DNA of 17,361 bases from Pseudobacteriovorax sp. (GCA_050293845.1 JBNKNM010000111.1:1-17361); one strand, 5' to 3'. Shown: positions 261 to 17,361, counted from the stretch's first letter. Made by a program: numbers and translations. Notes: generated by a model not told the origin, from the letters alone.

Positions 261-549
261 GAACCAAATTATCCGATGGATCAAATTTCTAACTGCCGCA
301 TAGCACCTTTATTAAGATTTTAAAAGGTGATCAAAATTTTTAAAAAAAACGTAGCGATCTCCTCTAAAAAAACACCCTTTCTTCATTTAGTCCGCTATTG
401 CATGAATCTGCTCAATTTGGCATTTTTTAATGCCGAGAATAACGATCAAGGGAAGACCTCATGAGATATTCAAGTATGTATCTATTCATGTGCTAAAAAT
501 TTATGTTACTATTCATAATAAGAGATTAACTTATCCACTATAGGAAAAT

Positions 550-1269: not shown

Positions 1270-1719
1270 CAACGCTTACTGATTGAATCCATAGTGAAAA
1301 GTTAGTTTATTGGTTCTCCAAAGTTATAATAATAAGTAAAAATTTAGACTCGATCGTACACCACCCTGTTTTGACATTCCGATTTAGATAGCGCTGATTG
1401 CGAAATGTGCTATATTCTAACCCCTTCCTAGCACGGTATTTTTAATGGTTAGGCCAGAATTCTCATTATCGCGGAAGAGCTTTTCCCAATTAATATCAGT
1501 CATTTTTGTCTCCTAAATTGTACCTTCTTGATACATTCAGGATATCGTCAATTCTCTAGACTTAAAAACATGGAGATATAGATCGCTTACTGATCTTCGC
1601 CGGGCACGTAAGGTTAATGGCAATCTTGAATACGCCAGAATACCTTTTCACGCGTTAAAGCGTCGAGAGCCTGCATAAACTTACCGATTAGGTAATAAAT
1701 CGCACTTAGAGGGGAACTG

Positions 1720-3240
1720 ATGAAATTCATAGAACTTTTGCTACTAGGGTCAATGTTTTTAGTAAGTTGTACATCACAGACTAAGGTGAGTGATAGTGGC
1801 GACATCCAGGGAGCAGGAGCCTCACCAATTGATAATGAGGCCTCCAAGGATGCTGCCCAAACAGAGGATGAGCTAGAATCAATAGTCGAAAGAAGAGACG
1901 AGCTAAGTAGGACAGACGACTTCGTCTTGGTGAGCGAAACGCCCCTTTCGACCTTCTCTGCAGATGTTGATACAGCCTCATACACACGGTTTAGAGAAAC
2001 TATGCAAAAATTTGGACAAGTTGATCAAGCAGCAATTCGCACCGAAGAGTTTCTCAATTACTTTCCCTATCAATATGCAAACCCCACCGCAGAAGAGGTG
2101 TTTTCTTATAATTTCGCATCGACTCCAACACCTTGGAATGAAGGTACTCGGATTGCTCGTATAGGATTGAAGACTTTTGAACCTGCTGACTTAAAGACAC
2201 GAGCCAAAAACCTGACATTCTTAATCGATGTTTCGGGCTCCATGTCTGGCAACAAGCTAAACCTTATAAAAGAATCCATGACTCAATTAGTTGGTAAGCT
2301 CGCCCCAGAGGATACAATTGCTATCGTCACTTATGCCGGACGCGATGAAGTTGTACTATATCCGACCCCCATTTCTCAACGCGATATGATCATCGCTGCA
2401 ATCCAGGGTTTGGATGCTGGTGGGGGTACGAATGGTGCTGCAGGAATCACAACAGCCTATAAGCTAGCTAACGATACTTTTGTCACTGGTGGTGTTAACA
2501 GGGTTTATTTATGCACCGATGGCGATTTTAATATTGGTATAACAACCTCTGACGCACTCGGGCAACTTGTCCAGCAAGAATCCCAAAAGGGAATTTTTCT
2601 GAGTGTATTCGGAGTGGGTGCCAATGGTGGATATCAGGATCAAATGCTAGAATCCATTACAGGCGAAGGAAATGGCGTCTACCACTATATCGATAGTGAA
2701 ACCGAAGCCGCGAAAGTCCTAGGAATCGACTTGTACAAGGGGCTTGTAACCGTGGCAAAGGATACCAAATTTCAACTTAGCTTTAATCCAGATATGGTTT
2801 TTATGTACCGACTTATTGGCTATGAAAATCGCCGTTTAAATGACGAGGATTTTGAAAATGATGCCAAAGATGCTGGTGATATTGGTGCTGGTCATGAACT
2901 TACCGCCATTTATGAAGTCATGTTAAATGAAGGTGTCTCACTTAGCACCGCTTCTGCACCCTTGTTTACTTTATCCACTCGGTTTAAAAGACCTGAAGCA
3001 ACAGAGTCAGAGTTACTTTCTGTTTCATTTATTGATGATGGAACAGACGATATCATAGACAATCCCGATTTGAGCTTTCAAATTGGATTGGTAGCTTTTA
3101 CGTCTACACTTAAAGAGTCTCAACATACGGTAGATTTGGATGCCGCGGTGATGAGGTCCCTCATTACCCAGGGGGTAAGTGGCGAAACTGATTTGGGATT
3201 AAGAACCGAGTTTTCGAAATTATTAGATCTTCAGAAATGA
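1720..3240 (+). CDS. YfbK-like von Willebrand factor A domain lipoprotein (vWF_A N-segment + VWA + DUF3520-like C-terminus)
   Basis: Lipobox LVSC. PLSTFSADVDTASY and IRTEEFLNYF are YfbK signatures. MIDAS elements DVSGSM, GGGTNG and LCTDGDFN; C-terminal YRLIGYENR..DAGDIGAGH. SD GAGGGG upstream. Confidence 0.92.
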   Translation: MKFIELLLLGSMFLVSCTSQTKVSDSGDIQGAGASPIDNEASKDAAQTEDELESIVERRDELSRTDDFVLVSETPLSTFSADVDTASYTRFRETMQKFGQVDQAAIRTEEFLNYFPYQYANPTAEEVFSYNFASTPTPWNEGTRIARIGLKTFEPADLKTRAKNLTFLIDVSGSMSGNKLNLIKESMTQLVGKLAPEDTIAIVTYAGRDEVVLYPTPISQRDMIIAAIQGLDAGGGTNGAAGITTAYKLANDTFVTGGVNRVYLCTDGDFNIGITTSDALGQLVQQESQKGIFLSVFGVGANGGYQDQMLESITGEGNGVYHYIDSETEAAKVLGIDLYKGLVTVAKDTKFQLSFNPDMVFMYRLIGYENRRLNDEDFENDAKDAGDIGAGHELTAIYEVMLNEGVSLSTASAPLFTLSTRFKRPEATESELLSVSFIDDGTDDIIDNPDLSFQIGLVAFTSTLKESQHTVDLDAAVMRSLITQGVSGETDLGLRTEFSKLLDLQK

Positions 3241-3251
3241 AAAGCCTAGCA

Positions 3252-3343
3252 ATCAACCAAAGGCTCAGCTTTCAGCAAGAGTTGGCAAACTTATTTTTTC
3301 TAGCTAGAGCGACTTTGCAAGTTAGCTGAGTTTTCAGGTTGGT
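3252..3343. repeat. Long imperfect inverted repeat / stem-loop (about 92 nt) downstream of the vWA gene
   Basis: Nested pairings, allowing G-U: ATCAACC 3252-3258 with GGTTGGT 3337-3343; AAGGCTCAGCT 3260-3270 with AGCTGAGTTTT 3324-3334; GCAAGAGTTG 3275-3284 with CGACTTTGC 3310-3318. Confidence 0.55.
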
Positions 3344-3499
3344 AATTCACGAAGTCGATCAGAGTTTGATTGGCATGACCCACTCGGCTAAAAAGTCACA
3401 GGTCAGGAACTGGTTAATTGTCACCAGGATATCTTCATAATGACACGATATTATTTTCACCCATAAAAACCACAAAGTGAAATATTTTTTGACAATCGG

Positions 3500-3527
3500 T
3501 GTCCATTTTCAGGGGGCTGACTCGTAT
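3500..3527 (+). promoter_or_regulatory. Candidate ECF-sigma promoter (TGTCCAT-N16-CGTAT) for the barrel/sigma/anti-sigma/caspase operon
   Basis: Spacing and motifs resemble TGTC..-N16-CGT ECF promoters. Lies 43 nt upstream of the ATG at 3571. Inference only. Confidence 0.35.
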
Positions 3528-3570
3528 AGAGTTCGATAATACAATGTTGACTATATTTTAGGGGCGTATC

Positions 3571-4446
3571 ATGAAAAAATATCTTGTTTTTGGAGTATTA
3601 GCCATTGCCTCTGCAGGCCGGGGGGAGACGGTGTACCTAAAAAATGGCACTGTTCTACAAGGGGCTATTGTGGAGATGAGTGAGACCAATATTACCCTAT
3701 CTACCTCTGATCTTGGGACTATCATTATTAAAAGACGCTCCGTGGCTTCGATTAGTGATGGCCAATATGCTCGCCATGGAACGGCTTTACCTCAAGCGAA
3801 TGTTCCTCAACCTGCTCCCCCAAAGAGTGCTCCAGTCCCCCCCAGTCCCCTCCAGGCCGCTGCCCCATCAGCAGTGCCAATCCAACAAGATATTACCATT
3901 AATAACGGTAAGGTTTCTGGTACATCATCTACAAATTCAGCTCTGGCTGCTGCCTCAGATAGGGGCCATTTACACAGTAATCTTGCCGTGGGCTATTCTG
4001 GGGTGCGGATAGGCAATGATCGCTTGCGTATGTCGTCCATTCATTGGGATGTGCTCTCCTTCCGTACCCCGTCAGGGTCAAGCTTTGGTCTTTTTGCTAG
4101 TGCGGGTCGAGGTGATGATGGTTCCTTTTCCACTGGTGGCATCAAATCTGATTGGGCCTTAACCAGAACCCGTTTTGCCCAAGGGGCATCGAGTCTTTCC
4201 TTTGGCTTGCACGGTGGTGTCAGTCAAGTGGTTTATAAGGAAGCGTGGTCTTTTCCATATTACCCTATGTATTATGACCAAGAGGTTAAGGCCCATGGGC
4301 CTAGCTTTGGCGGCCAGTTGGCTTATAACTTCCTCAGTGACCATGATTTTGGCTTTCAGGTAGGTATTTCAGCAACTAGGGTTTTCGATGATGACCGTGA
4401 AATAGATCTAGCGAGTGGTTTTGGTGGAATTTCGATCGTCTTTTAG
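3571..4446 (+). CDS. Secreted protein: small N-terminal beta domain, Pro/Ala/Ser-rich linker, C-terminal outer-membrane beta-barrel
   Basis: Signal peptide; ETVYLKNGTVLQGAIVE..I.L....G.I.I N-domain; PQPAPPKSAPVPPSP linker. Amphipathic strands end in GGISIVF (terminal Phe, beta-signal-like). SD AGGGG. Confidence 0.75.
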   Translation: MKKYLVFGVLAIASAGRGETVYLKNGTVLQGAIVEMSETNITLSTSDLGTIIIKRRSVASISDGQYARHGTALPQANVPQPAPPKSAPVPPSPLQAAAPSAVPIQQDITINNGKVSGTSSTNSALAAASDRGHLHSNLAVGYSGVRIGNDRLRMSSIHWDVLSFRTPSGSSFGLFASAGRGDDGSFSTGGIKSDWALTRTRFAQGASSLSFGLHGGVSQVVYKEAWSFPYYPMYYDQEVKAHGPSFGGQLAYNFLSDHDFGFQVGISATRVFDDDREIDLASGFGGISIVF

Positions 4447-4966
4447 AAAGCAAAAGAATACATCTGAGAGCTTTGACTGTCGCTCAGAGGGCAAGGTAGA
4501 GGAACTTTACCAGGCAGTAGCTCCTTATGCTTTGAGTAAAACCCTTTATATGGTTGGCTGTCCGCAGATTGCCCAAGAAATTCTCCAAGAGGTTTTTCTT
4601 AAACTGTGGAGTAAGAAGTTAGTCTTCTTGTCAATTAAATCAGCGTATCAATGGATATATACGGCTTGCCATTATCGCGCCATAGATTATCTCAAAGCGT
4701 CTGTTAATAGGGTTAAGAAAGAGGCTTTGGCGGAGCTTTGCCTGCCGGAAACTGTTTCCGATAGGACTGCTAATGGTCAGATGATTGGGATGATTGCGGC
4801 TCAATTATCAAAGCGACAGCTATCAATCCTTTCCTATCGATTTGTGGATGGTCACAGGGTTGCAGATATTGCTGATATGATGAAGCTTTCTGAAAAGACA
4901 ATTCAAAGGGAGCTTAAGCTTATTAAAAAGCTAGGCATGAAAATGAAGGGAGTTTGGGATGACTAA
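4415..4966 (+). CDS. ECF-type sigma-70 RNA polymerase sigma factor
   Basis: Region 2: AQEILQEVFLKLW and WIYTACHYRAIDYLK. Region 4: LSKRQLSILSYRFVDGHRVADIADMMKLSEKTIQRELK. Start is uncertain (GTG 4415, TTG 4421 or GTG 4424), all overlapping the upstream gene end. Confidence 0.9.
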   Translation: MVLVEFRSSFRKQKNTSESFDCRSEGKVEELYQAVAPYALSKTLYMVGCPQIAQEILQEVFLKLWSKKLVFLSIKSAYQWIYTACHYRAIDYLKASVNRVKKEALAELCLPETVSDRTANGQMIGMIAAQLSKRQLSILSYRFVDGHRVADIADMMKLSEKTIQRELKLIKKLGMKMKGVWDD

Positions 4967-5645
4967 GGAGCCTCCTACTACTAAGGAATCATTATTGGAT
5001 CAGCACCTTCGCCTGATGGAAGGGGTGAGCTATGAGGCAAAGGATCACGAAGAATTCTCTCGGGCGATGGCCTTGAAACCAGCCCCTCTTAGCTTGACAG
5101 AAAAATCAAAGAATGGATTAAAACCAATATATCTTGGTCTTGCCGCCACATTTTTCCTTGGTTTGCTCCCATTTTTATTACCTGAATTTCTCAGTGATCA
5201 GACCCCGCCCTTTTCACCCAAAGGCCAGTACGGTGTTTCTGTTTACTGGAAACGAGATGGTCAGGTACACAGGCTTAAAAGCCATGACCGCTCCTTACAA
5301 GCCGGTGACGAGATCACGGTAGAGGTGCATTCAGGGGTAAATAGTATCGTATTTCTCGGGATTTATAATCGCCAAGGCCAGCGGTTGCATGATGGGCAGT
5401 CCTTTCTGAGTAGTCAATCTTTTGTGTCGCGGGGAGAATCGCAGATTCTTCCCAAGGCTTTTGCCTTAACCGGTTCTAGCGAGGGGGAGTTCCTATCTAT
5501 ATTTTTCTGTAATCCTCAGGTGTTTGCCGAACAGTCGCACTATCTAAAAGACCTAGTCCATCGCAGCCGGTCTATGTCTGAAAATGAGCTGTTTATCAAT
5601 AATTTTATTAACTGTAAGGTAGTCCGGAGGCGTTTACGAGATTAA
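4959..5645 (+). CDS. Putative anti-sigma factor: short cytoplasmic N-terminus, single TM helix, extracytoplasmic DUF4384-like Ig-type domain
   Basis: Overlaps the sigma gene stop by 8 nt. TM segment IYLGLAATFFLGLLPFLL, then PKG.GVSVYWKRDG...LQAGDEITVEV...VFLGIYN..G...LPKAFALTGSSEGEFLSIFF, which resembles DUF4384. No ZAS HxxxCxxC motif. Confidence 0.65.
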   Translation: MTKEPPTTKESLLDQHLRLMEGVSYEAKDHEEFSRAMALKPAPLSLTEKSKNGLKPIYLGLAATFFLGLLPFLLPEFLSDQTPPFSPKGQYGVSVYWKRDGQVHRLKSHDRSLQAGDEITVEVHSGVNSIVFLGIYNRQGQRLHDGQSFLSSQSFVSRGESQILPKAFALTGSSEGEFLSIFFCNPQVFAEQSHYLKDLVHRSRSMSENELFINNFINCKVVRRRLRD

Positions 5646-5656
5646 GGTTTAGTGTT

Positions 5657-7219
5657 ATGACCACATATTTTTTTTACGGCATGTTACTTGTATTGATGCT
5701 GCCTATGGGAACCGTACAGGCTCAGGTGGGTGTGTTAGCTGTCGGGTCTAATCGCTCGGCAGATCCTAGTCTCAAACCCCTTCGCTATGCTGCCCAGGAT
5801 GCCAGGCGGTTTGCTAATACTATGCGAACGGTGGGCATGCTTTCGGAGGGAGATGTAAGTGTTTATGAAAACCCTAGCCTTGCCTCTTTTCGCAAAGCCA
5901 TCAAGACTATAAAGGCAAAGTGGTTAAAACCCCAAGCATCTCAATCTCAAAAATTTGTGTTTTACTACTCTGGTCATGCCGATGCTAGAGGCCTTCATTT
6001 AGCTGATGGGATTGTTACTAAGGAAGAGCTTCATCGCAGCTTAGAAGGAATCAAAGCCAAGACCAAGGTGGTCTTTCTTGACAGCTGCTATGCGGGGGGG
6101 CTAGCACAAAAAGGTATTCGCGAGGTTAAGCCCTTTAAAATTCCGCGGGCCACCTATGATGAGCCCACGGGATCTATCTTTCTGTCGGCCACTAGTGACA
6201 ATCGCCTTGCCTATGAAAGTAAAGAGCTTGGTGGTAGCTTATTTAGCCATCACTTGATTCGAGGTTTGGAAGGGAGTGCTGATGGTAATCGTGATGGAGT
6301 TGTGACTGTCACGGAACTCTATGAGTATAGCTTTCAGCAAGCACAGTTTCAGAATCAGGTCCTTCCAGCTTTTGCCCAAAAGCCAGAGTTTATTTCTGAT
6401 CTTAAGGGGCGCGGGGCCGTTGCCTTGTCTTTTCCCCTATCCCAAGTAGGGACCCTTAGCCTCATGGGAAATTTATTTGGTGAGGTCCTGGTCCGCTCTC
6501 GGCGAGGACTGCATTCCTTTCAATTTAATATAAGTCATGAGAAGAGCCGATCGTTCAAATTAGCTGCTGGTGAGTATCAAGTACGAGTTAACCATGATAA
6601 TCGCGTTGGCATCACAGAAGCTAAGATTCATACCAATAAGACTACCGTATTGACCACCTATGATTTTGACTGGATAGAGCAGGGCACGACGAGGTTCCCG
6701 TTACCCGTGAATCAAAAAGGTCTTGCCATAGTAGAGGACTCCAGTAAAGGTGGTAGTCATCTTGGGTCTGTTGCTATCGGCGTAAGCTTTCTTAGGACCA
6801 AGGCTAAGTCGGCTGACTTTCTGCCGACGGTGGCTTTTGATGTTATTCTAAAACCAATGGCTGACGTTTACCAACTTTCGGCCTTTGCCAGCACCGGAAA
6901 TAAGGACGAAGCTCATTTTACTTGGGGGGGGGGTAAGTTAGATCGGATTTGGTCTCCAGCGTCCCTACATCAATTGCGCTTTGGCTTAAACTTTGGCTAT
7001 GGGCAGATGCGCTTCCATGAGGATGCCCCCTCTGTCTATTTTTACCGCCCTCCGCATCAGGTCAAAGCAGAAGCTCTTAGCTTCGGTGGCCAAGCTAACT
7101 ATCATTACTCTTTCCGTAGGGATGTTGCCTTTCACCTTGAAGGACTATTGGGGTCTTTTTTGGATGGTGATGAATCGTCAGTATTTAGCTTACTGGGCGG
7201 TATGGCTTATGCCTTTTAA
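5657..7219 (+). CDS. Exported caspase-family (peptidase C14, orthocaspase-like) protein with C-terminal beta-barrel
   Basis: Signal peptide (VQA|Q); VLAVGSN..L.PLRYAAQDA. Catalytic dyad FYYSGHA (H107) and FLDSCYAG (C144). AYESKELGGSLFSHHLIRGLEGSADGNRDGVVTVTELYEY; a PEGA-like beta segment (LAAGEYQVRV); C-terminal amphipathic strands ending GGMAYAF. Confidence 0.92.
   Translation: MTTYFFYGMLLVLMLPMGTVQAQVGVLAVGSNRSADPSLKPLRYAAQDARRFANTMRTVGMLSEGDVSVYENPSLASFRKAIKTIKAKWLKPQASQSQKFVFYYSGHADARGLHLADGIVTKEELHRSLEGIKAKTKVVFLDSCYAGGLAQKGIREVKPFKIPRATYDEPTGSIFLSATSDNRLAYESKELGGSLFSHHLIRGLEGSADGNRDGVVTVTELYEYSFQQAQFQNQVLPAFAQKPEFISDLKGRGAVALSFPLSQVGTLSLMGNLFGEVLVRSRRGLHSFQFNISHEKSRSFKLAAGEYQVRVNHDNRVGITEAKIHTNKTTVLTTYDFDWIEQGTTRFPLPVNQKGLAIVEDSSKGGSHLGSVAIGVSFLRTKAKSADFLPTVAFDVILKPMADVYQLSAFASTGNKDEAHFTWGGGKLDRIWSPASLHQLRFGLNFGYGQMRFHEDAPSVYFYRPPHQVKAEALSFGGQANYHYSFRRDVAFHLEGLLGSFLDGDESSVFSLLGGMAYAF
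6924..6933 (+). repeat. G10 homopolymer within the caspase gene barrel region
   Basis: TGG GGG GGG GGT AAG (WGGGK). Stops TAA 6934-6936 and TAG 6939-6941 follow immediately in the two alternative frames. Confidence 0.8.
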
Positions 7220-7356
7220 TCCAACAGAGCTATTAGTCTTGCGCACAAGAGGATCTCTTTCTAAAAACACATATCATATAGCAGCTCGACCAATGCTAGA
7301 CTCCTAATCCCTTGGATGGTGGGCTGCTTTCGTTAAATTCCGCGCAGTCTTAGCAT

Positions 7357-8129
7357 GGGGTTCTGAATCTTATCAGAAAATGGGTTAAGGCGGGCTCAGT
7401 AGAAAATAACACTTTTATCAAGAACGATTATGGAATACCGCAAGGCGGTCCGATTTCGGTTTTGATAAGTAATATCTACCTTCACTACGACCTTGACCTA
7501 TGGATGAATAAAAAAGTGAAGCCTAGGCTTCTTGGTGAAATTTACTATTTTCGTTACCTTGATGATTTTGTCGTTTGCTTTCAATATAAAGAGATGCGAA
7601 AAGAGTCCAGGCCGCACTTGTGCAACGGCCTGACAAGTTCAACCTATCTTTAGAAAAAGACAAAATTAAACTGGTGCGCTTTGGACGATTTTCTCTAGAG
7701 CAAAACAAAGAAAGGAGGCTGAGACAAGAGAGAATCTACTTTCTTGGCTTCACAATATTTGGTGATAGATCGTTGAATAGCGTTTCCCGTCTGGGATTTG
7801 TCACTGAACGGAGCCGAAGAAGAAGATGTAAAATAAAGATTAAGGAACTTACTCTAGCAAATCGTCATCTCTTGATACCCGGCCAACATCGGACATTAAA
7901 GATGACACTCAATGGGATATACAGCTACTACGCTATTGCGAGTAATCACGAATTTCTGGGGCGCTTGCATCATTATGCAAAGCTACGCTGGCGAATAGCG
8001 CTTTCCAAGAGGTCTCAAAATGGTAGGTATACTTGGGAAATGTTCAACAGAACCATGGAATACTTTCCACTACCGAGGCCCGGGTTGCTAATTCCCTACC
8101 TCAAGTTTGATGCTTTCGCTTTGCTGTGA
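7357..8129 (+). pseudogene. ltrA: Group II intron reverse transcriptase/maturase, truncated and frameshifted
   Basis: VLNLIRKWVKAG..GIPQGGPISVLISNIYLHYDLDLW..RYLDDFVVCFQYK, then a 1-nt deletion near 7588-7592. Continues DAKRVQAALVQRPDKFNLSLEKDKIKLVRFGRF..FLGFT and domain X (GIYSYYAI..N...WRIALSKRSQ..TWE.F..FPLPRP). No start codon (TAG at 7351) and no endonuclease domain. Confidence 0.92.
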
Positions 8130-9462: not shown

Positions 9463-9497
9463 TTTTTAGCGGATGAGATTGAATTAGGTATTCATTG

Positions 9498-12400
9498 ATG
9501 GCAGTACATCCTTCTATTCTAAGATGGTTTAAGCAACTAACTTTTGTAGTATTGACTGCTTTTTTGCTTGTATTTTTAGTCTTGTTTGCTGGAACGATTT
9601 ATATTGTTCAAAATCCTCATTTCCTGGATCACTACAAGTCAGATATTCAGGAAATTCTAGCTAAATTTTCTGTAGAATTAGACTATAAATCTTTCTTTTT
9701 TCAACCTTTACGTAAGATAGAAATTCGTGATTTAAATTTACACTGGGATAACGGTAAAGGCACTCAGTTAAGTCTACAGTCACCTTTGCTTAGGATTCAA
9801 TACCAGGGGCGTAAGCTACTGAATAAACATCTATTAATTGAGGAATTTTTATTTGAGCAAGTGAAAGTTTCTATTGCAATCGAACAACTGCCTGAACCGG
9901 CCCCACAAATAGAGGCCCCGGAAAAAGGACCGTTTTCATTAGAGCAATTAAAAGAAGTTTTAAGCAAACCACCAATCACTTTGGAAATCAAGAAGCTAAA
10001 AATAGACAGTTCCCGGATTCAAGTAAAATTAACTGATCCGAATCTTAAAGGTTTTATTAACTTTTCTCAATTCTCTTTGGATCAAACCTTTTACTGGGAT
10101 ACGCAAAAGCTTTTAGGAAATAGTCATGTCACTTTAAAGCACGCTGTCAATGAAAATATGAGCTTTTTGCTCGGTGAAAAAGAACAAATGCAAAGTATCA
10201 GCTTAAATCCAAATCTAGATCTAAAGCTAAACTTCGATGTTCAACCACAAACGGTTATCCGCGATGGAAAGCTGGATCTATCTGATTTACACGGGGAGTT
10301 GGAACAACAAATTAACCTTAATGATGTAGAATTTAGTGATAAATTATCAGGAATAAATCTCAATATTTCTGCATTATCTAATTATGTAAATATATCACCT
10401 AAAGCACAAATATTATATTTACGGCAAGCTCTCAAACTTAAGGAAATGGCATCTAGTATTCTTAGAAAAAAAATCCCAAACCTTTCAATGAATAGTCAAT
10501 TTCATTTTCCTCCTGACCTACAGAATTTGGAAGGGGATATCGATCTAAGTCTATCGGGATTTAAACTTTTCCATTGGTTGTTCGAACTCGAAAACGAAGC
10601 CCAAAGTTTGTTGCTTAAGCATAATATGGATTTAGATATTCATCTAGATCTAGCAAATTATTTAAAAGAAGCCAAAATTCTCGAACAGCTGGGAAGACTT
10701 CAGTTAAATATACAAGGTCAACATCAGCTAAGTCATATGTGGGATGATGGCTTTGCTATTAATTTTGAAAAGATTCAGGATCAAGAGGCTGCCAGTGATG
10801 TGTTGCTGACACTTAAACAAATTCCCTTAAGACAAAGAAAATTGCTTTTCCGCTTAGCTGGCCCCATGGTTTTGAAGTTAAATCATCATTATAAAAATCA
10901 ACTTTTAGAACAAAATATAGATATTAAGATAAATAAGTTTAAAATAAATCCTCTCAGACGACCAGTCAATCTTAGTATTATAGGAAAGCAAAAAGTTCCT
11001 CTAAACCTTTCCTACGCGGATAATGTTCTAGATTTATTTGTCAATCGAGAAAAAGTTTTTTGGATTTCTCAAAGAATAGAGAACTTCGATCAATTGTTTT
11101 TCCTAGATCAAAAGGTGTCCTTAGAACTTGATCCAGATATGGAAAGATATCTAAAGGAATTAAAACCACTTCAGCAAATGGGGAGAAACCGTATAGTTAG
11201 TCTTCTTAAGCTAAAACTCAAGCATGATCATAAAAGCCTTCTAGAAAAAGATAGTTTAAAGCTACATAAAAATCATGTGACTATTGATCATAAACTTGCC
11301 TTAAGTCAAAAGCGTCCTCCAGATAAAAAATATCCTTTAGGAATTCGTTTCTTAAAACCGATTGAGATCATAACAAAAGCAACTTTACTAGATAATCAGG
11401 CTAATCTGGATATACTTGGTAAGATACCGCATTTATCCATCAATTCTATAGCTAGAACCAAAAATTTTAGTTTTAAAATAAAAACAAAACCCTTTACTAA
11501 GTTGTTTTCAAAAGACAATCAACTAAATATTCCTCAATCGGGACAAGCTAGAATACAGCTCAGAAATGATGCCGTATATTTAACAAAAAAATTCGAATCT
11601 TTTCAGGAAAACTTGAAGGATATATCGCTCTCTTTTTTAGCTAGAATACAAAATAATAATAGAGTCTCTATTAGAGATTTTTTATTAAAAGTCGGTCCTA
11701 AGTTTATGATATTTCAACTAGAGAGTGAGGCCAATATTAAACCTATGCGGTTTAAGGCTGAGGGGCAAATTGATATGAAAATGCCTGTCTCCAAACTACA
11801 AAATTATCCCCTAAAATCACAAGGTTCATTAAAACTTCCCTTTGAATTCTTTTTTGATGAAAGCAAACAGTTAGCCCTGAAAAGCTCTCTTAATTTTCAA
11901 AATATTAGCCTAATGAATCCTGATTTTGTCCTAAAAAATTTGAATGGGACCGTCAAAATTGAAGAACTTGTAAAGCTTGAATCAGATAATAAATTTCATT
12001 TTACGAATCTAATCTCGAAAAATCCATTTCAAAGAGTAGATTTCAATGCTATTCGACCTTACTTGTTAGAAAATTCTAATGTAAATTTTCGATCCTTTCG
12101 TTGGCGAAATTTTGAACTTGGTCCATTTCTTGGGCAAATGAGCTTAGAGCAAAATTTGCTAAACCTGCCTTATTTTTCTTTAGGTATGTTTGGGGGAGAT
12201 TTAATTGGCGAACTGCTAGTCGATACTTATCCAAACCACTTAAAAATAGGTATCTTAGCCAGATTTACTAATATAGACCCGGCAAAAATGGTAACAGTGG
12301 GAAAAGCAGCACAGCAAAAATATGAAGCAAGCAAAATCAGTGGGAGCGTAAATTTCGTTTTTGATATTCGTAAAAGATTACTAGAAGGAAGGCTCAGTAT

Positions 12401-12701
12401 TACTGAAATTGGTAGTCAGCAATTACTGCGTTTAATTGATGTTTTAGATCCAGATTTCGAAGATGAAGATTTAAATAGTTTACGACAATTGTTATCAATT
12501 GGCTACCCAGAAAGAGTCATAGTCAAGATGCAAGAGGGTTTGATGGATATCGGAGTGGATGTAATTGTAGCGGGAGTGAGTAAGCATCAAGATATTTTTG
12601 CGGTGCCTCTCTCCCCTATGATAGAAAGTAATGTAGGTGAACTAATAGCCAAAATTCTTGAAGAGTATGCAAAGGTTTATCCTATTCCAAGTAAAAAGTG
12701 A
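9498..12701 (+). CDS. AsmA-like / YdbH-like intermembrane lipid-bridge protein
   Basis: About 1067 aa with a single N-terminal TM anchor. Chorein-N/AsmA-like start (IEIRDLNL..LRIQY...LLNKHLLIEEFLFEQVKV), beta-strand-rich throughout, C-terminal FSLGMFGGDLIGEL..ISGSVNF. Followed by a small lipoprotein. ATG 9498 preferred over TTG 9495. Confidence 0.7.
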   Translation: MAVHPSILRWFKQLTFVVLTAFLLVFLVLFAGTIYIVQNPHFLDHYKSDIQEILAKFSVELDYKSFFFQPLRKIEIRDLNLHWDNGKGTQLSLQSPLLRIQYQGRKLLNKHLLIEEFLFEQVKVSIAIEQLPEPAPQIEAPEKGPFSLEQLKEVLSKPPITLEIKKLKIDSSRIQVKLTDPNLKGFINFSQFSLDQTFYWDTQKLLGNSHVTLKHAVNENMSFLLGEKEQMQSISLNPNLDLKLNFDVQPQTVIRDGKLDLSDLHGELEQQINLNDVEFSDKLSGINLNISALSNYVNISPKAQILYLRQALKLKEMASSILRKKIPNLSMNSQFHFPPDLQNLEGDIDLSLSGFKLFHWLFELENEAQSLLLKHNMDLDIHLDLANYLKEAKILEQLGRLQLNIQGQHQLSHMWDDGFAINFEKIQDQEAASDVLLTLKQIPLRQRKLLFRLAGPMVLKLNHHYKNQLLEQNIDIKINKFKINPLRRPVNLSIIGKQKVPLNLSYADNVLDLFVNREKVFWISQRIENFDQLFFLDQKVSLELDPDMERYLKELKPLQQMGRNRIVSLLKLKLKHDHKSLLEKDSLKLHKNHVTIDHKLALSQKRPPDKKYPLGIRFLKPIEIITKATLLDNQANLDILGKIPHLSINSIARTKNFSFKIKTKPFTKLFSKDNQLNIPQSGQARIQLRNDAVYLTKKFESFQENLKDISLSFLARIQNNNRVSIRDFLLKVGPKFMIFQLESEANIKPMRFKAEGQIDMKMPVSKLQNYPLKSQGSLKLPFEFFFDESKQLALKSSLNFQNISLMNPDFVLKNLNGTVKIEELVKLESDNKFHFTNLISKNPFQRVDFNAIRPYLLENSNVNFRSFRWRNFELGPFLGQMSLEQNLLNLPYFSLGMFGGDLIGELLVDTYPNHLKIGILARFTNIDPAKMVTVGKAAQQKYEASKISGSVNFVFDIRKRLLEGRLSITEIGSQQLLRLIDVLDPDFEDEDLNSLRQLLSIGYPERVIVKMQEGLMDIGVDVIVAGVSKHQDIFAVPLSPMIESNVGELIAKILEEYAKVYPIPSKK

Positions 12702-12708
12702 GGACAAT

Positions 12709-12951
12709 ATGATGAAATGCTTACTAGTTCTACTATTATTAAGCGTATCTAGTTGTGCAAGTGTTGAAATTTATCAAGTGAGTCGGCAGACAGTCATGGA
12801 GGAGGAGGCTATGGGCGAATGGCCAGACTTTGAAAAATTATTTCAAAGTAAAAAATTATCAACGGGTCCCCAATTCCTACCGGAAACTAAGAATACTAAA
12901 AAAATACAACGATTGATGAACGTATTGCCTGGTGAGTTCGTGAACCGATAG
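12709..12951 (+). CDS. Small lipoprotein, YnbE-like (positional/structural analogy)
   Basis: Start moved to ATG 12709 (or 12712) after GAGGA. Signal MMKCLLVLLLLSVSS-C, followed by a single beta strand (SVEIYQV) and a helix. Directly downstream of the YdbH-like gene. Confidence 0.6.
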   Translation: MMKCLLVLLLLSVSSCASVEIYQVSRQTVMEEEAMGEWPDFEKLFQSKKLSTGPQFLPETKNTKKIQRLMNVLPGEFVNR

Positions 12952-12961
12952 GAGAGTCGGC

Positions 12962-15900
12962 ATGCAATGGTATCTATTCACCCTTAGTGTAGCATTTTTT
13001 CTATTTTTAAACTTACAAACTACCTTAATAGCAGGAGTGAGTGGGCATTTTGATCATATCAAATTGCCTGAAAAAATTTCTGTAGGACCTGATGATAGTT
13101 ATCAGGCAAAGGTTAAAGGAGAGCATCTTTATTATACTAAAAATATCCGGTTATCTAGCCAAATATTTAAACAATCTCTCCTTGATGGTAAATATCAGGC
13201 TTTGTTGGATGGAAAGTCCGATGCAAAAAGTCCTAGCCCGCAACCTAATGGCGAGAAAATTCTTTTCACTTACTTTAAATATGATGCCAAAGGTGATATT
13301 TGTCTCTTAGAAGATAAAGAAGTCCGCTGTATCACGGACAATAAAACAGAAAATCGGTCACCTACCTGGTTGAATTCAGATACACTAGCCTATTTAAGTC
13401 GTAAGACAAATAGTTCTTTTTGGAATCTTATCAGCTATAATATCAAGTCTGGACAAAAAAAGTCGATTCTTACTGCAAATATTGCATCTCTTGCATCCGA
13501 TCGCCAGGGGAAGTTTTTGGCTTTCACGCAGATCAGCAACAATCAACACTCTTTAATGGTGTTCGATCAAAAAGCAAACAAAAGTTTTCCAGTAGAGTTA
13601 AATCTCCCGGGACTCAGTGGATTCAGTAGTTTTTCACCTAATGGGAAATACCTCTATTTCAGTCATTATTTAAACGACACGAATGCAGATAATATTATCG
13701 ATGGTAACGATCATAGTGTTATTTTTCGTCTTCCACTTCAAAAAATATTGAATGCCTCCAAAGGAAAACAATTACCAGAACAAATGACGTCTGTAGAGCA
13801 AAATTGTAATTTTCCTTATGTTAACGATAAATATGTTTATCTAACCTGTGCATTTCAAGGTGCTTTGGATCTATATCGCATCCCATTTACTGGCGTGGTG
13901 CCAAAACAGTGGTCTCAATCCCAACTGTTAGAAGCACATCAAGTTGCAAGAACAGCTGAGGAACGATTATTAATTTTAAATAGTCTGCGCTACCGATTCA
14001 ATAAAAAAACTAGCGGTACTATGTTAGAAAAAATTCTCTTTCATCACTTGCAGCTCAATGAGATGACGGCTGCTAGGTACTATATCAATGAACTAATTCA
14101 AGCAGAACACTACCCAGATTTTTTTCAAACTCTCAAAATTTATGTTGATATTCGTGAAGCTAAAAACCGCGAAAAATCCTCTCTTTTATCCCAAAAATTT
14201 AAAGCAGATGCATTGCAGAAAATTCGTCAGCTTCCAAGTAATAAAAAATGGCACAATCTCACATTAATCATTCGGGCTTATATTTATGAATCGCTAAACA
14301 TGAAACAAAAAGCAAAGCAAGCTATTAGGGGCGTTCCTATATTTGATAGTAATGTCTTGCCTTTAGAAAGTTACCTGTGTTTCGAATTATATAAAAAATT
14401 ATTTGATCCCAAAAAGGAATTGAATAGGTTTATTGAACTCTATCGTTCTATGATTGACGCAAATAAGATTGCTCTAGAATCGAAGGTTTTTTTGGCATTT
14501 TATTTTCTTAAGCATGTAGAGCAGCTTCATTCATCATTATTGAATAAAATTTCTATTGTCAATAAATTCAAATCACAAATAAAAGTTCGAACATTAGATG
14601 ATTTATTTGATAGTGAAACGATTAACTATAAAATGATTGCTGATAATGATAATAAAAGCCAAAAAGATAATTTTACAAAACTAAAGAAGATCTATGCTAA
14701 GACAAAAGATCAATATTTCCTGCGTAAAGCAATTTATATACGATCTTTGAGTTTATTTTCGCAAGCAAATCTTGATACCTATTTAGAACGTGTGGCAAGT
14801 TACTGGCTGCGATATACGAAATTGTCTCATGCTGAGTTTATTTATGCTGCGGATCAGTTTAATTATGTCACCCTTGAAAAGGCCTATGCTAACTATCAAA
14901 ATAAAAAGTACGATTTATCATCGAGTTCCTTTTTTATGGCAATGAATCAAACCAATGATCTTGAAGCTCACTATGGATATTTGGCTGTTGTTATTTTAAA
15001 ACAAGGTAATTATGACAAATATGAGCAAGCATATAAGATCTTGAATAAAAATGGCAAGCTATCGACTGCTAAACCCATTGTTGAAGCTATGCTCGCAACA
15101 CAAAAGTTAGATGGGTCTAGCCAAAAAAAAATGGAACAATTGGATCAGTTGATTCAATCATTAGAAGCGGCTGTTACGGAACCATTTAATGAAAGCCTTC
15201 GCTATCTGCTCTTGGCTTTCTGCTACCATGAAAAATTACGAATGAGTTTTGAAATCTACGACTATGAAAGTACCTTTTTTGAGAAAGCTCATCGATATTA
15301 TATTTTGGCGGAGTATCTCGCTCAAGATAACGAAAGAATTCTAGCGAGTGTTTGGGAAAATTTGGGAATTTTGCATTATGAAGTCCAGAATCATTCCATT
15401 TCTTCAGCTTACTTCGAAAAAAGGGAACTGCTTGGCTTTGCAGAGATAACAGACGAAGTTACATTTAGGCTTTCTTATGCCCGATCTCTTTTTAACAGCC
15501 ACCAAGCAAGGGGTGCCCAGCAACAAATCCAAAAAGCAATGGGGCATAAATCCTTCTTAAACCAAAAACAGCAACAAATTCTTACCGAGAGAAGAGCCTT
15601 TTATGCTTTGCATAGTAATGATTATGCTGTAGCAGTTGAAGCTTATGCATCTTTAATAAAAATGCCCCACATTTCGGCACTCAATCAAGCGCGCTTTAAC
15701 CTAGCATTGGGATTTGCACAGAAAAAACTCTCTCACAAGCAAGCAGCAAAAAATTCTCTGCTCAAGGTTCTAAAATTTAGTAAAAAAATTCCGATCATTC
15801 GGCCCCAAGGAGGACGCTTACTGGGGCAATTTCCCCAAAGATTTCAATTGATTGCACTAGGTCTCCTAGCAGAGCTATCAGATGGTGATGAGGACATTCG

Positions 15901-16438
15901 ATACCGACGTAACCGGATAACGGAATTAATAACCTTAGAGGGACAAGTGGATGATTTTCGTATGAAAGAGTCTGATCGCTTAGCGCAGATTAATCTTGCC
16001 TATCAGCAGATTGCAGCGAACTATTTTTCCCATGGTCAATTATCAGAAAGTTTTAAGCATATGGATTTAGCTTGGCAATATGCAAAAAAATGGTACAAAA
16101 ATGGCGGTAGCCTATATGGTGAAACACTATATAAGAGTATGAGTAATAGCATGTTATTGGCGATTAAAACTCATGGCCATTACAAAGTGGATGAATCTGA
16201 TTTCCAAGAAATTATCAGTGAAGCGAAAGAAGAATTTTCTAAGCTTAAAAATGTTAGTGCTTTTCAGCTGTATAAACAGAAAAAAATGGAATTGTTTTGG
16301 GTTAGTTATCTTAATATTCAATCTCCTAAAAAATCGATGATTCTAGAAAATTTTATGAAAACTGCTGATATGAAACGTTTGGAAAGTGAACTACCTAAAA
16401 AATTTAGAGAGCTTCACTCTTTATCGATGAAATTCTAA
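12962..16438 (+). CDS. Large exported protein: TolB-like (PD40) beta-propeller plus long TPR/alpha-solenoid
   Basis: Signal peptide; PD40-like blades (SPSPQPNGEKILFT, SPTWLNSDTLAY, SDRQGKFLAF, SFSPNGKYLYF). Ca-loop-like DTNADNIIDGND. TPR-like helices (ENLGILHYEVQNHSISSAYFEK, NLALGFAQKKL). SD GGAG. Confidence 0.8.
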   Translation: MQWYLFTLSVAFFLFLNLQTTLIAGVSGHFDHIKLPEKISVGPDDSYQAKVKGEHLYYTKNIRLSSQIFKQSLLDGKYQALLDGKSDAKSPSPQPNGEKILFTYFKYDAKGDICLLEDKEVRCITDNKTENRSPTWLNSDTLAYLSRKTNSSFWNLISYNIKSGQKKSILTANIASLASDRQGKFLAFTQISNNQHSLMVFDQKANKSFPVELNLPGLSGFSSFSPNGKYLYFSHYLNDTNADNIIDGNDHSVIFRLPLQKILNASKGKQLPEQMTSVEQNCNFPYVNDKYVYLTCAFQGALDLYRIPFTGVVPKQWSQSQLLEAHQVARTAEERLLILNSLRYRFNKKTSGTMLEKILFHHLQLNEMTAARYYINELIQAEHYPDFFQTLKIYVDIREAKNREKSSLLSQKFKADALQKIRQLPSNKKWHNLTLIIRAYIYESLNMKQKAKQAIRGVPIFDSNVLPLESYLCFELYKKLFDPKKELNRFIELYRSMIDANKIALESKVFLAFYFLKHVEQLHSSLLNKISIVNKFKSQIKVRTLDDLFDSETINYKMIADNDNKSQKDNFTKLKKIYAKTKDQYFLRKAIYIRSLSLFSQANLDTYLERVASYWLRYTKLSHAEFIYAADQFNYVTLEKAYANYQNKKYDLSSSSFFMAMNQTNDLEAHYGYLAVVILKQGNYDKYEQAYKILNKNGKLSTAKPIVEAMLATQKLDGSSQKKMEQLDQLIQSLEAAVTEPFNESLRYLLLAFCYHEKLRMSFEIYDYESTFFEKAHRYYILAEYLAQDNERILASVWENLGILHYEVQNHSISSAYFEKRELLGFAEITDEVTFRLSYARSLFNSHQARGAQQQIQKAMGHKSFLNQKQQQILTERRAFYALHSNDYAVAVEAYASLIKMPHISALNQARFNLALGFAQKKLSHKQAAKNSLLKVLKFSKKIPIIRPQGGRLLGQFPQRFQLIALGLLAELSDGDEDIRYRRNRITELITLEGQVDDFRMKESDRLAQINLAYQQIAANYFSHGQLSESFKHMDLAWQYAKKWYKNGGSLYGETLYKSMSNSMLLAIKTHGHYKVDESDFQEIISEAKEEFSKLKNVSAFQLYKQKKMELFWVSYLNIQSPKKSMILENFMKTADMKRLESELPKKFRELHSLSMKF

Positions 16439-16940
16439 ATCAAGTCGAGTAAAATGCACTGAAAATGAAGGTGGGAACAGCATCATCGAGTTCCTTTTTG
16501 TAGCAGACCAAGATTTTGCAAAAAGGGACTACCATCTGGCTTTTCAGCACCTAGTACAATATGATTTTCCTTCACCCATGGGATTTAACTGTCGTTTAGA
16601 CTTATTTTGATGTCTATATGACATATCTGGCTACTTTCTCTCGTCCAGTAACCATACCCAGAAATGGAAAATATTTGCCCTTGAGCCAAGGGTTCTGTAT
16701 ATAATGTAGTGCCTTTATGCCATGTTTACCCAAAAAAACACCTGAAAATAAGCCGCCAAACAAGAGATGAAATATTTGATCGGGACGTGAGGTTAGACGT
16801 CCCAAAAATCTATGGTATAAACGAGACGGTTAAGTTTATTGCTGATAGCTTAGAGAAATGAGCGAAGGTTTCATTTTTGCACCAAGGAATATTCGAGTAT
16901 CATCTGGATATAGATGAGTTCTCATTTGAAAAGGACTTTT

Positions 16941-17361
16941 ATGAATCCTATAAACAAAAAAAATAGATTTAGTTTAGGCTACTTCATTTTCGCAATGTTA
17001 GTTGTGCTTGTGGTTCAAAACTTCATTATACAGAAGACTCAAGTGATTCGTATGAGCTATGATGATTTTCAAAAGCACTTGAAAGAAGGGTTGGTTCAGG
17101 AGCTTGAAATCGGTGATAACTACATTAAAGGAACCCTGCGCGAGTCCATCGACAATAAGAACCAATTCATCACAAACCGCGTTGACCCCAACTTAGCCCA
17201 GGAATTAAGCCAGTACAATGTAAAATTTTCTCGAATTGTAGAGGATCATTTATTAGGAAAAATATGGTCCTGGGTAGTCCCAACTTTATTTTTTATCATC
17301 ATCTGGATTTTCATTATGCGCTACCTATCAGCCAAAGGAGGTTTGGGTGGAGGCTTTATGG
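16941..17361 (+). CDS. ftsH: ATP-dependent zinc metalloprotease FtsH, N-terminal part (runs off window)
   Basis: Manual translation: MNPINKKNRFSLGYFIFAMLVVLVVQNF...MSYDDFQKHLKEGLVQELEI...FITNRVDPNLAQEL..YNVKF...WSWVVPTLFFIIIWIFIMR...GGLGGGFM. This gives TM1, the FtsH periplasmic domain, TM2 and the Gly-rich linker. SD AAGGA. Confidence 0.88.
   Translation, partial: MNPINKKNRFSLGYFIFAMLVVLVVQNFIIQKTQVIRMSYDDFQKHLKEGLVQELEIGDNYIKGTLRESIDNKNQFITNRVDPNLAQELSQYNVKFSRIVEDHLLGKIWSWVVPTLFFIIIWIFIMRYLSAKGGLGGGFM

Follow-up and report, generated by a model that had tools for sequence, protein, structure and literature searches.

A four-gene locus with an ECF sigma factor and an exported caspase

The stretch of DNA analyzed here (17,361 nt, referred to as the window) corresponds to contig C111 in a draft genome of Pseudobacteriovorax sp. 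that comprises 6.68 Mb in 741 contigs (GCA_050293845.1, JBNKNM010000111.1). It carries four adjacent genes on one strand, encoding the exported protein ORF1 (open reading frame 1), a sigma factor of the extracytoplasmic function (ECF) type, a single-pass membrane protein and a caspase-fold protease of family C14 (Table 1). In the reading that we favor, to which we give a probability of roughly 0.4, the caspase would be held at the outer membrane by a tether and would cut the membrane protein, a candidate anti-sigma factor, after K88, RseP would complete the release of the sigma factor, and the sigma factor would then transcribe its own operon.

Table 1 Coordinates of the operon, its candidate functional sites and the neighboring genes in the window
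Feature	Position (nt)	Strand	Basis or remark
VWA-domain protein, YfbK type	1720-3240	+	PF12034, PF12450, PF00092
Candidate ECF-type autoregulated promoter, TGTCC-N17-TCGTATA	3500-3528	+	43 nt before the start codon of ORF1
ORF1, exported accessory protein, 291 aa	3571-4446	+	ORF call
ECF (group IV) sigma factor, 183 aa	4415-4966	+	Pfam and TIGR02937
Single-pass membrane protein, candidate anti-sigma factor, 228 aa	4959-5645	+	AlphaFold, gene neighborhood
Membrane protein: hydrophobic transmembrane helix, residues ~56-78	5124-5192		
Membrane protein: K88-G89, conserved juxtamembrane motif, proposed cleavage site	5220-5225	+	Alignment
Exported C14 (metacaspase/orthocaspase-type) protease, 520 aa	5657-7219	+	PF00656, Foldseek, AlphaFold
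Protease: signal peptide			
Protease: caspase domain, residues 22-250			AlphaFold, pLDDT ~90
Protease: H107, within YYSGHAD	5975-5977		
Protease: C144, within LDSCYAGG	6086-6088		
Protease: beta-sandwich, residues 255-341			AlphaFold, pLDDT ~90
Protease: linker K354-G355	6716-6721		
Protease: probable barrel, residues ~356-520			Ends in YAF
169-aa ORF	7620-8129	+	TIGR04416
1068-aa ORF	9495-12701	+	
1158-aa ORF	12962-16438	+	

The original prediction, made from the sequence of this locus, had described four tightly packed genes with two overlaps and an 11-nt gap, among them an ECF sigma factor and a C14 protease with a signal peptide and an intact His-Cys dyad, and this part of it was borne out by our analysis. 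The ORF coordinates give an overlap of 32 nt between ORF1 and the sigma gene if the latter starts at GTG 4415 (TTG 4421 and GTG 4424 are alternative starts), an overlap of 8 nt between the sigma and membrane-protein genes, and then the 11-nt gap before the caspase gene. The sigma factor scored above the cut-off against three Pfam families, PF04542 (Sigma70_r2, 26.9 bits, cut-off 24), PF08281 (r4_2, 29.7 bits, cut-off 25.7) and PF07638 (Sigma70_ECF, 23.7 bits, cut-off 21.1), and its score against TIGR02937, 42.9, is exactly the cut-off value.

The protease matches PF00656 with 52.9 bits (cut-off 21.4), and both members of the dyad, H107 and C144, are conserved without exception across 40 homologues, C144 being the sole cysteine of the protein. 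Its hydrophobic N-terminus, which ends in VQA-QV, fits a signal peptide as judged by eye from the sequence. In the AlphaFold model, a caspase fold and a following beta-sandwich were both predicted with a high predicted local distance difference test score (pLDDT; Table 1), and Foldseek searches with this model returned caspases with E 7e-9 and template-modeling scores (TM-target) of 0.62-0.76, as well as matches to the paracaspase MALT1 that span 328-399 alignment columns. We assigned the protease to the metacaspase/orthocaspase type because the nearest solved proteins found by profile are metacaspases (6w8s, E 8.6e-6) and its DSC motif is aligned to DSCHSG. From this assignment, and with the Asp of the DSC motif, which we take to line the S1 pocket, the protease is predicted to accept a basic P1 residue (Arg or Lys). 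An Arg/Lys specificity is given for metacaspases in PMC3501461.

ORF1 has a signal-peptide-like start, a small N-terminal domain (residues ~20-62), a Pro-rich linker and a C-terminal region of ~165 aa that ends in IVF. It has no Pfam family, and its N-terminal domain is weakly similar to NF047433 (Lepto_7_Nterm), with 28.7 bits, below the cut-off of 43. ORF1 and the caspase share homology over their last ~165 residues (BLASTP 4e-8, 34% identity, caspase residues 410-520), and the two proteins end in ...GGISIVF and ...GGMAYAF, respectively, both with a terminal Phe. An aromatic residue at the C-terminus is characteristic of outer-membrane barrel proteins, and many caspases of the wider family have F, W, L or I as their last residue, preceded by an alternating pattern. 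Residues 345-520 of the caspase were modeled by AlphaFold as approximately nine strands with pLDDT 29-48, and the ESM Atlas clusters nearest to both C-terminal regions are small barrels (PF13505 (OMP_b-brl), DUF3575 and TraO, scores 0.93-0.96), which serve as leads only. The claim that both proteins carry outer-membrane barrels is thus indirectly supported by the homology of the C-termini and the terminal Phe, whereas Pfam detected no barrel family in ORF1 or the caspase and the confidence of the model is low, and we conclude that the two regions are probably outer-membrane barrel anchors. Autotransporter-like surface display of the caspase was considered and rejected, as the C-terminal ~165 aa look too small for a translocating barrel, given the usual size of such barrels. 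A small barrel with both of its ends in the periplasm would have the catalytic domain face the periplasm. Full-length relatives of ORF1 occur in two of 40 related genomes (G001 and G007), in both beside the caspase operon. The novelty that had been seen in the twin barrels was overstated, given this narrow distribution of ORF1 and the barrel-signal-like ends that are common across the wider caspase family.

The membrane protein has one transmembrane helix, and its AlphaFold model, based on a 96-sequence alignment (mean pLDDT 83.6), consists of two short N-terminal helices, the transmembrane helix and a beta-sandwich. Lys residues precede the helix, and two Cys residues of the C-terminal domain, C184 and C219, follow it and are invariant in the family alignment, which fits a periplasmic, disulfide-bonded domain. 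By its sequence, therefore, it is a single-pass protein with a predicted cytoplasmic N-terminus encoded next to a sigma factor, a combination that marks anti-sigma factors, and it keeps its position beside the sigma gene in relatives. The 8-nt overlap with the sigma gene also speaks for a candidate anti-sigma factor, as do a zf-HC2 match below the cut-off (E 0.002) and a weak RskA_N match of its Myxococcus homologue. No Pfam or NCBIfam family was found in the window protein or its seven orthologues, a word-based homologue search recovered only the protein itself, and Foldseek with its model gave generic Ig-like matches only (RhoGDI, Wzt CBD; E >= 8e-4), with no specific fold relative. A profile search with the protein returned 794 cluster representatives at E<=0.001.

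Conservation of the module and a candidate promoter

Eight further genomes of the order Oligoflexales contain an orthologue of the caspase (36-52% identity), and in seven of these eight the sigma and membrane-protein genes are adjacent to it, while the contig of the eighth starts 108 nt before the caspase gene. With the window counted, eight of the nine orthologous loci of the order have the sigma factor, the membrane protein and the caspase together. The gene order among these loci varies: we observed ORF1-sigma-anti-sigma-caspase, sigma-anti-sigma-caspase-ORF1 and caspase-sigma-anti-sigma, a locus in which the caspase and sigma genes are divergent (G002), and one in which the caspase gene is followed by a Kelch-repeat protein and then by the sigma/anti-sigma pair. 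The inserted gene in the last of these (G036, L019 4875-6347, - strand) encodes a 490-aa Kelch-repeat beta-propeller protein that is lipoprotein-like. The persistence of the linkage through a variable gene order points to a functional link and argues against mere co-transcription.

For a wider survey, a scan with the caspase alignment over one genome per species yielded at least 593 relatives confirmed by tblastn, from at least 599 pattern matches, and the best 80 of the at least 593 relatives were examined as loci centered on the caspase gene, with script-built profiles; six of the 80 duplicate loci already in the set. The 80 loci belong to Oligoflexales, Myxococcota, Spirochaetota (among them Treponema and metagenome-assembled genomes (MAGs) of Leptospirales) and a few other MAGs. 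An ECF sigma gene lies within 2.5 kb of the caspase gene in 68 of the 80, and the membrane-protein family was detected in 53 of them, as a rule with its end at the start of the caspase gene. Among the 12 loci without a sigma gene, nine have less than 1.7 kb of sequence upstream of the caspase gene and in three (L035, L053 and L057) the upstream sequence is complete and a sigma gene is absent. Fifteen loci with a sigma gene gave no match to the membrane-protein profile, the intervening space being judged by profile only. The synteny of C14 and ECF genes that the prediction had relied on was found in this survey and in the orthologous loci, and the related sigma/DUF4384/caspase clusters that it had mentioned for myxobacteria are represented by the Myxococcota loci and in PMC3501461.

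Because the arrangement recurs across phyla, it lies far beyond what chance would produce. Genomes of this kind contain many ECF sigma genes, and an ordinary sigma/anti-sigma pair might simply have come to lie beside an unrelated exported protease, but the linkage survives rearrangements, spans at least three phyla and is accompanied by two more caspase/ECF-sigma modules in the genome of the window, so that we regard mere neighborhood as very improbable. That the genes form a conserved functional unit is well supported by these comparisons. The second and third modules of the genome lie at G000:C83:13931-16666 (L113 4432-7167, - strand) and G000:C5:54573-58410 (L114 2074-5911, - strand), and their caspases are exported proteins of 550 aa each that end in W. 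One of the two modules is ordered as sigma factor, 191-aa protein and caspase, and the other as caspase, 269-aa protein, sigma factor and 221-aa protein, the small proteins being unannotated. Caspase matches with a frame length of ~550-580 aa are present in most related genomes.

The candidate promoter upstream of ORF1 was compared with the other loci of the order. The pattern TGTCC-N17-WCGTWYA occurs at seven sites in 168,548 nt from 15 Oligoflexales loci, compared with a mean of 0.135 sites in block shuffles (maximum 2, n=200) and one site for the reversed pattern, an enrichment that is overstated because the pattern was fitted to the same loci. The sites lie before ORF1 in the window and in G001, before the sigma gene in G007 and L037, in the interval between the caspase and sigma genes in G013, and before a separate ORF1-like gene in G007, and the seventh faces a divergent gene for a 384-aa secreted protein in G013. 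This protein (L022 5731-6885, - strand), which has no Pfam family and whose gene is divergent from the caspase gene, may be a member of the regulon. In the genome of the window, the pattern has three sites and the reversed control four, and no genome-wide enrichment was found. Taken together, the motif is consistent with an ECF promoter that is autoregulated and belongs to a very small regulon. The ORF1-type protein is a likely target of the sigma factor. Scans of the window for sigma-70 promoters and terminators gave counts no higher than those of shuffles, and no Rfam family reached its gathering score in the window.

A candidate cleavage site and the proposed release of the sigma factor

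The signal-peptide-like N-terminus of the caspase and the pattern of Lys and Cys residues around the transmembrane helix of the candidate anti-sigma factor imply that the caspase and the C-terminal domain of the membrane protein would share a compartment. Past the transmembrane helix, a Lys-Gly pair stands out from linkers that are otherwise divergent: it lies 9-44 residues from the helix and is nearly invariant, with K in 92 and G in 96 of the 96 members of the anti-sigma family. Among the 54 sequences of the cross-phylum locus set together with the window protein, 51 have the K and 53 the G, and an Arg stands two residues earlier in 36. We propose this pair as a candidate cut site because a metacaspase-type enzyme would cut at a basic residue in a flexible linker. 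A similar pair occurs in the caspase itself: in the linker that joins its beta-sandwich to the C-terminal region and was modeled with low confidence, K or R is found in 39 of 40 homologues and G in 40 of 40.

In the pathway that we propose, the operon would encode the sigma factor, a single-pass anti-sigma factor, a metacaspase-type protease and the lineage-specific accessory protein ORF1, and would be transcribed by the sigma factor itself. The anti-sigma factor would consist of a short cytoplasmic part that binds the sigma factor, the transmembrane helix and a periplasmic DUF4384-like beta-sandwich, and the small C-terminal beta-barrel would tether the protease to the outer membrane with its catalytic domain in the periplasm, while ORF1 would have a paralogous barrel. 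An envelope signal would activate the protease or open access to its target, and the protease would then make the site-1 cut a short distance beyond the inner membrane, after the conserved basic residue in R/x-x-K-G. RseP and cytoplasmic proteases would clear the remaining anti-sigma factor, and the free sigma factor would transcribe its own operon from the promoter at 3500-3528; the K/R-G pair in the linker of the protease is possibly an autoprocessing site. An M50 site-2 protease of the RseP type (PF02163, 216.8 bits) is encoded in the genome at G000:C13:7777-9354. We also consider, more tentatively, a specific form of this pathway in which the outer-membrane-anchored metacaspase would span the periplasm and cut the anti-sigma factor between K and G of R-x-K-G upon a change in outer-membrane integrity, envelope spacing or a bound ligand, and in which ORF1, induced by the sigma factor, would reset the switch as a partner or decoy.

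Several points weigh against cleavage of the anti-sigma factor by the caspase. The cleavage and sigma-binding steps are inferred throughout, and no recognizable anti-sigma domain, either as an HxxxCxxC zinc motif or as anti-sigma domain (ASD) helices, was found in the window membrane protein. Longer, fused anti-sigma-caspase forms were searched for and none was found, which is weak evidence. The predicted barrel, and hence the periplasmic topology of the caspase, comes from a model with pLDDT below 50 and from structural leads. Since K88 and E177 are both invariant, the K-G pair could possibly be structural, for example as part of a salt bridge where the first strand begins. The caspase of the window also shares the operon of the sigma factor and would itself be one of its outputs, which fits an effector role equally well. 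A complex prediction for caspase residues 22-345 with anti-sigma residues 79-228, run without controls, scored 0.01 against a mark of 0.32 and weighs neither way.

The effector role would make the caspase an output of the system: the sigma/anti-sigma pair would sense an unrelated envelope signal through the beta-sandwich, other proteases would release the sigma factor, and the outer-membrane-tethered caspase and ORF1 would be induced effectors in envelope protein turnover, programmed cell death or defense against phages or predators. This is consistent with the window, G001 and G007, in which the caspase gene lies downstream of the sigma gene in one operon behind the candidate promoter, and with the second copy of the motif in G007, by which the ORF1-like protein looks like a regulon target. 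The PCaspase of a cluster linked to clustered regularly interspaced short palindromic repeats (CRISPR), with its broad substrate use and abortive-infection phenotype (10.1101/2023.06.23.546230), offers a parallel. However, the linkage persists where the caspase gene is divergent (G002) or upstream of the sigma gene, and the G013 locus has its motif in the interval separating the caspase and sigma genes and not upstream of the caspase gene, which fits a caspase that acts upstream of the sigma factor rather than as its output. A plain output gene would not be expected beside a sigma/anti-sigma pair in 68 of 80 loci across phyla, nor would it be expected to have a basic-Gly motif in common with the anti-sigma factor, and neither the caspase nor the membrane protein nor ORF1 has a match among the PADLOC defense families. 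On balance, we find it rather unlikely that the caspase is an output only.

The beta-sandwich of the membrane protein bears on a further possibility. It had been described as DUF4384-like, and Pfam does not recognize it as such: DUF4384 (PF14326, gathering score 27 bits) gave no match in the window protein or its seven orthologues at E up to 10. The description is indirectly supported by distant members of the family, with sub-threshold DUF4384 matches in 6 of 96 wider-family members (best E 0.011) and in six of seven membrane proteins sampled from Myxococcota and Spirochaetota caspase loci (E 4e-4 to 8e-3, all below the cut-off), the seventh giving none. The window domain is probably a remote DUF4384 relative missed by current models. 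DUF4384 anti-sigma factors are given for group ECF25 in the ECF classification (PMC7826278), and the words 'caspase' and 'Peptidase_C14' are absent from the main text of that paper and from the portion of one supplement covered. In 41 related genomes, only two DUF4384 matches lie above the cut-off, in G001:C45 and G012:C207, and each of these bona fide DUF4384 proteins immediately adjoins a paralogous caspase. Such adjacency, together with the inhibition of PCaspase by PCi in a sigma-containing cluster (10.1101/2023.06.23.546230), speaks for a beta-sandwich that would bind the caspase in an envelope-spanning complex and hold it inactive or in position, until a signal breaks the complex, frees the protease and simultaneously destabilizes the anti-sigma factor. 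We consider this role of the domain unlikely, since the window domain is not recognized as DUF4384, PCi belongs to another fold family (CI-2-like; 10.1101/2023.06.23.546230), and no fused form of the membrane-protein family was found, although the last of these is weak evidence. Restraint of the caspase by the beta-sandwich, an effector role of the caspase and the site-1 cut that we favor are not mutually exclusive.

Outside the operon, a gene for a VWA-domain protein with a lipoprotein-like N-terminus lies directly upstream, and it is not kept beside the module in the loci of relatives. Directly downstream, the 169-aa ORF matches TIGR04416 (group II intron reverse transcriptase/maturase, E 3.7e-10), the match being restricted to the C-terminal third (model positions 238-352 of 353), and no group II intron RNA reached the Rfam gathering score in the window; the ORF looks like the remnant of a mobile intron. 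The G+C content is 43-48% over the VWA gene and the caspase operon (1500-8000) and 31-38% in most of the remaining window (compared with 9500-17000), and the higher-G+C stretch with the intron remnant may be a horizontally acquired segment. Two very large ORFs precede a fragment of the FtsH gene, of which the one of 1068 aa has no Pfam family and the one of 1158 aa has a weak PD40 repeat match only.

Relation to known protease-sigma systems

In the sigmaE/RseA/DegS/RseP system of E. coli, a single-pass anti-sigma factor receives a periplasmic site-1 cut and is then processed by an M50 site-2 protease, which releases the sigma factor and leads to autoregulation, and the site-1 enzyme DegS is an inner-membrane serine protease that is activated by the C-termini of outer-membrane proteins. 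The logic proposed for the window is the same, whereas the candidate site-1 enzyme is a caspase-fold cysteine protease tethered to the outer membrane. A closer parallel is the DdvS/DdvA pair of Myxococcus xanthus (PMC11506125, 2024), an ECF sigma factor and a single-pass anti-sigma factor with a periplasmic TPR-CHAT part, for which self-cleavage before RseP has been proposed. Both systems would have a periplasmic His-Cys protease of the caspase fold cut a juxtamembrane linker before RseP acts. In DdvA, however, the TPR-CHAT protease is fused to an anti-sigma factor with a zinc-binding anti-sigma domain and acts as a dimer in trans (PMC11506125), whereas the window has a separate C14 protein with a probable outer-membrane anchor and a small beta-sandwich sensor, with no zinc motif and no TPR-CHAT fusion. 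CHAT proteins are also described as conserved near ECF54 sigma factors (PMC8999054, a review).

The two precedents that the original prediction had named, Csx29/Csx30/CASP-sigma and PCaspase/PCi/PC-sigma, are both in print (10.1101/2022.08.17.504292 and 10.1101/2023.06.23.546230). In the type III-E craspase, Csx29, a TPR-CHAT protease, cuts Csx30 and thereby releases an ECF-type sigma factor (RpoE/CASP-sigma), Csx31 is also part of the system, and DUF4384 is one group of Csx30 C-terminal domains (10.1101/2022.08.17.504292). The craspase and the window have in common a caspase-fold protease, a sigma partner and a link to DUF4384, and the cut is known for the craspase and proposed for the window. 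The craspase, however, is cytoplasmic, RNA-guided and linked to CRISPR, whereas the 17-kb window has neither cas genes nor a repeat array: its 12 ORFs matched no Cas, SAVED or CHAT family in Pfam, no tandem-repeat array was found, and PADLOC gave only weak helix-turn-helix matches of the sigma factor to CARF/Csa3 models. The PCaspase of the type III-B system of Haliangium ochraceum is a Peptidase_C14 protein that, once activated, cuts PCc-sigma and PCi in vitro (10.1101/2023.06.23.546230). It resembles the window protease in being encoded beside a sigma factor and a small partner, and differs from it in that the system described there is cytoplasmic, is activated by a SAVED-CHAT protease that depends on cyclic triadenylate (cA3), has a CI-2-like inhibitor in place of the membrane protein and has no envelope location.

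The operon type itself was noted in 2012 by Asplund-Samuelsson et al. (PMC3501461), who found four of the five metacaspases of M. xanthus in operons with sigma-70-family genes and the same operon structure in Anaeromyxobacter, Haliangium, Sorangium, Ralstonia and Fibrobacter. The gene association is the same as in the window, but the available portion of that paper records co-occurrence only, without an anti-sigma factor, a DUF4384-like domain, an outer-membrane anchor, a motif or a mechanism, and Oligoflexales is not among the genera named there. The original prediction had placed its novelty mainly in the mechanism, and with this earlier record of the operons and the periplasmic caspase-fold anti-sigma protease already proposed for DdvA (PMC11506125), that claim was too strong. 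Our literature search, with most subscription journals outside its reach, returned no experimental study of the C14/DUF4384/ECF trio and, apart from the cases linked to CRISPR, no physiological substrate or role that experiments have defined for the C14 caspase homologues of bacteria.

The window is a divergent Oligoflexales member of a widespread, uncharacterized module already noted in print. It adds to the earlier descriptions a divergent branch of candidate anti-sigma factors that Pfam does not recognize, a variable gene order, a candidate promoter motif and a lineage-specific protein with a paralogous barrel. The operon type also offers a concrete candidate substrate, the anti-sigma factor with its conserved K-G pair, and in its own promoter it has a simple read-out. 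Should the protease be the site-1 enzyme, an ECF sigma factor would be gated in a new way, by a cysteine protease tethered to the outer membrane, and the envelope systems would be linked to the CRISPR-associated protease/sigma modules. If the outer-membrane metacaspase acts as the switch described above, it would provide the first defined physiological substrate for bacterial C14 metacaspases and a role in signaling in place of one in death. As the module occurs in predators (Oligoflexales and myxobacteria) and in spirochaetes (including Treponema and Leptospirales MAGs), the biology involved may be broad.

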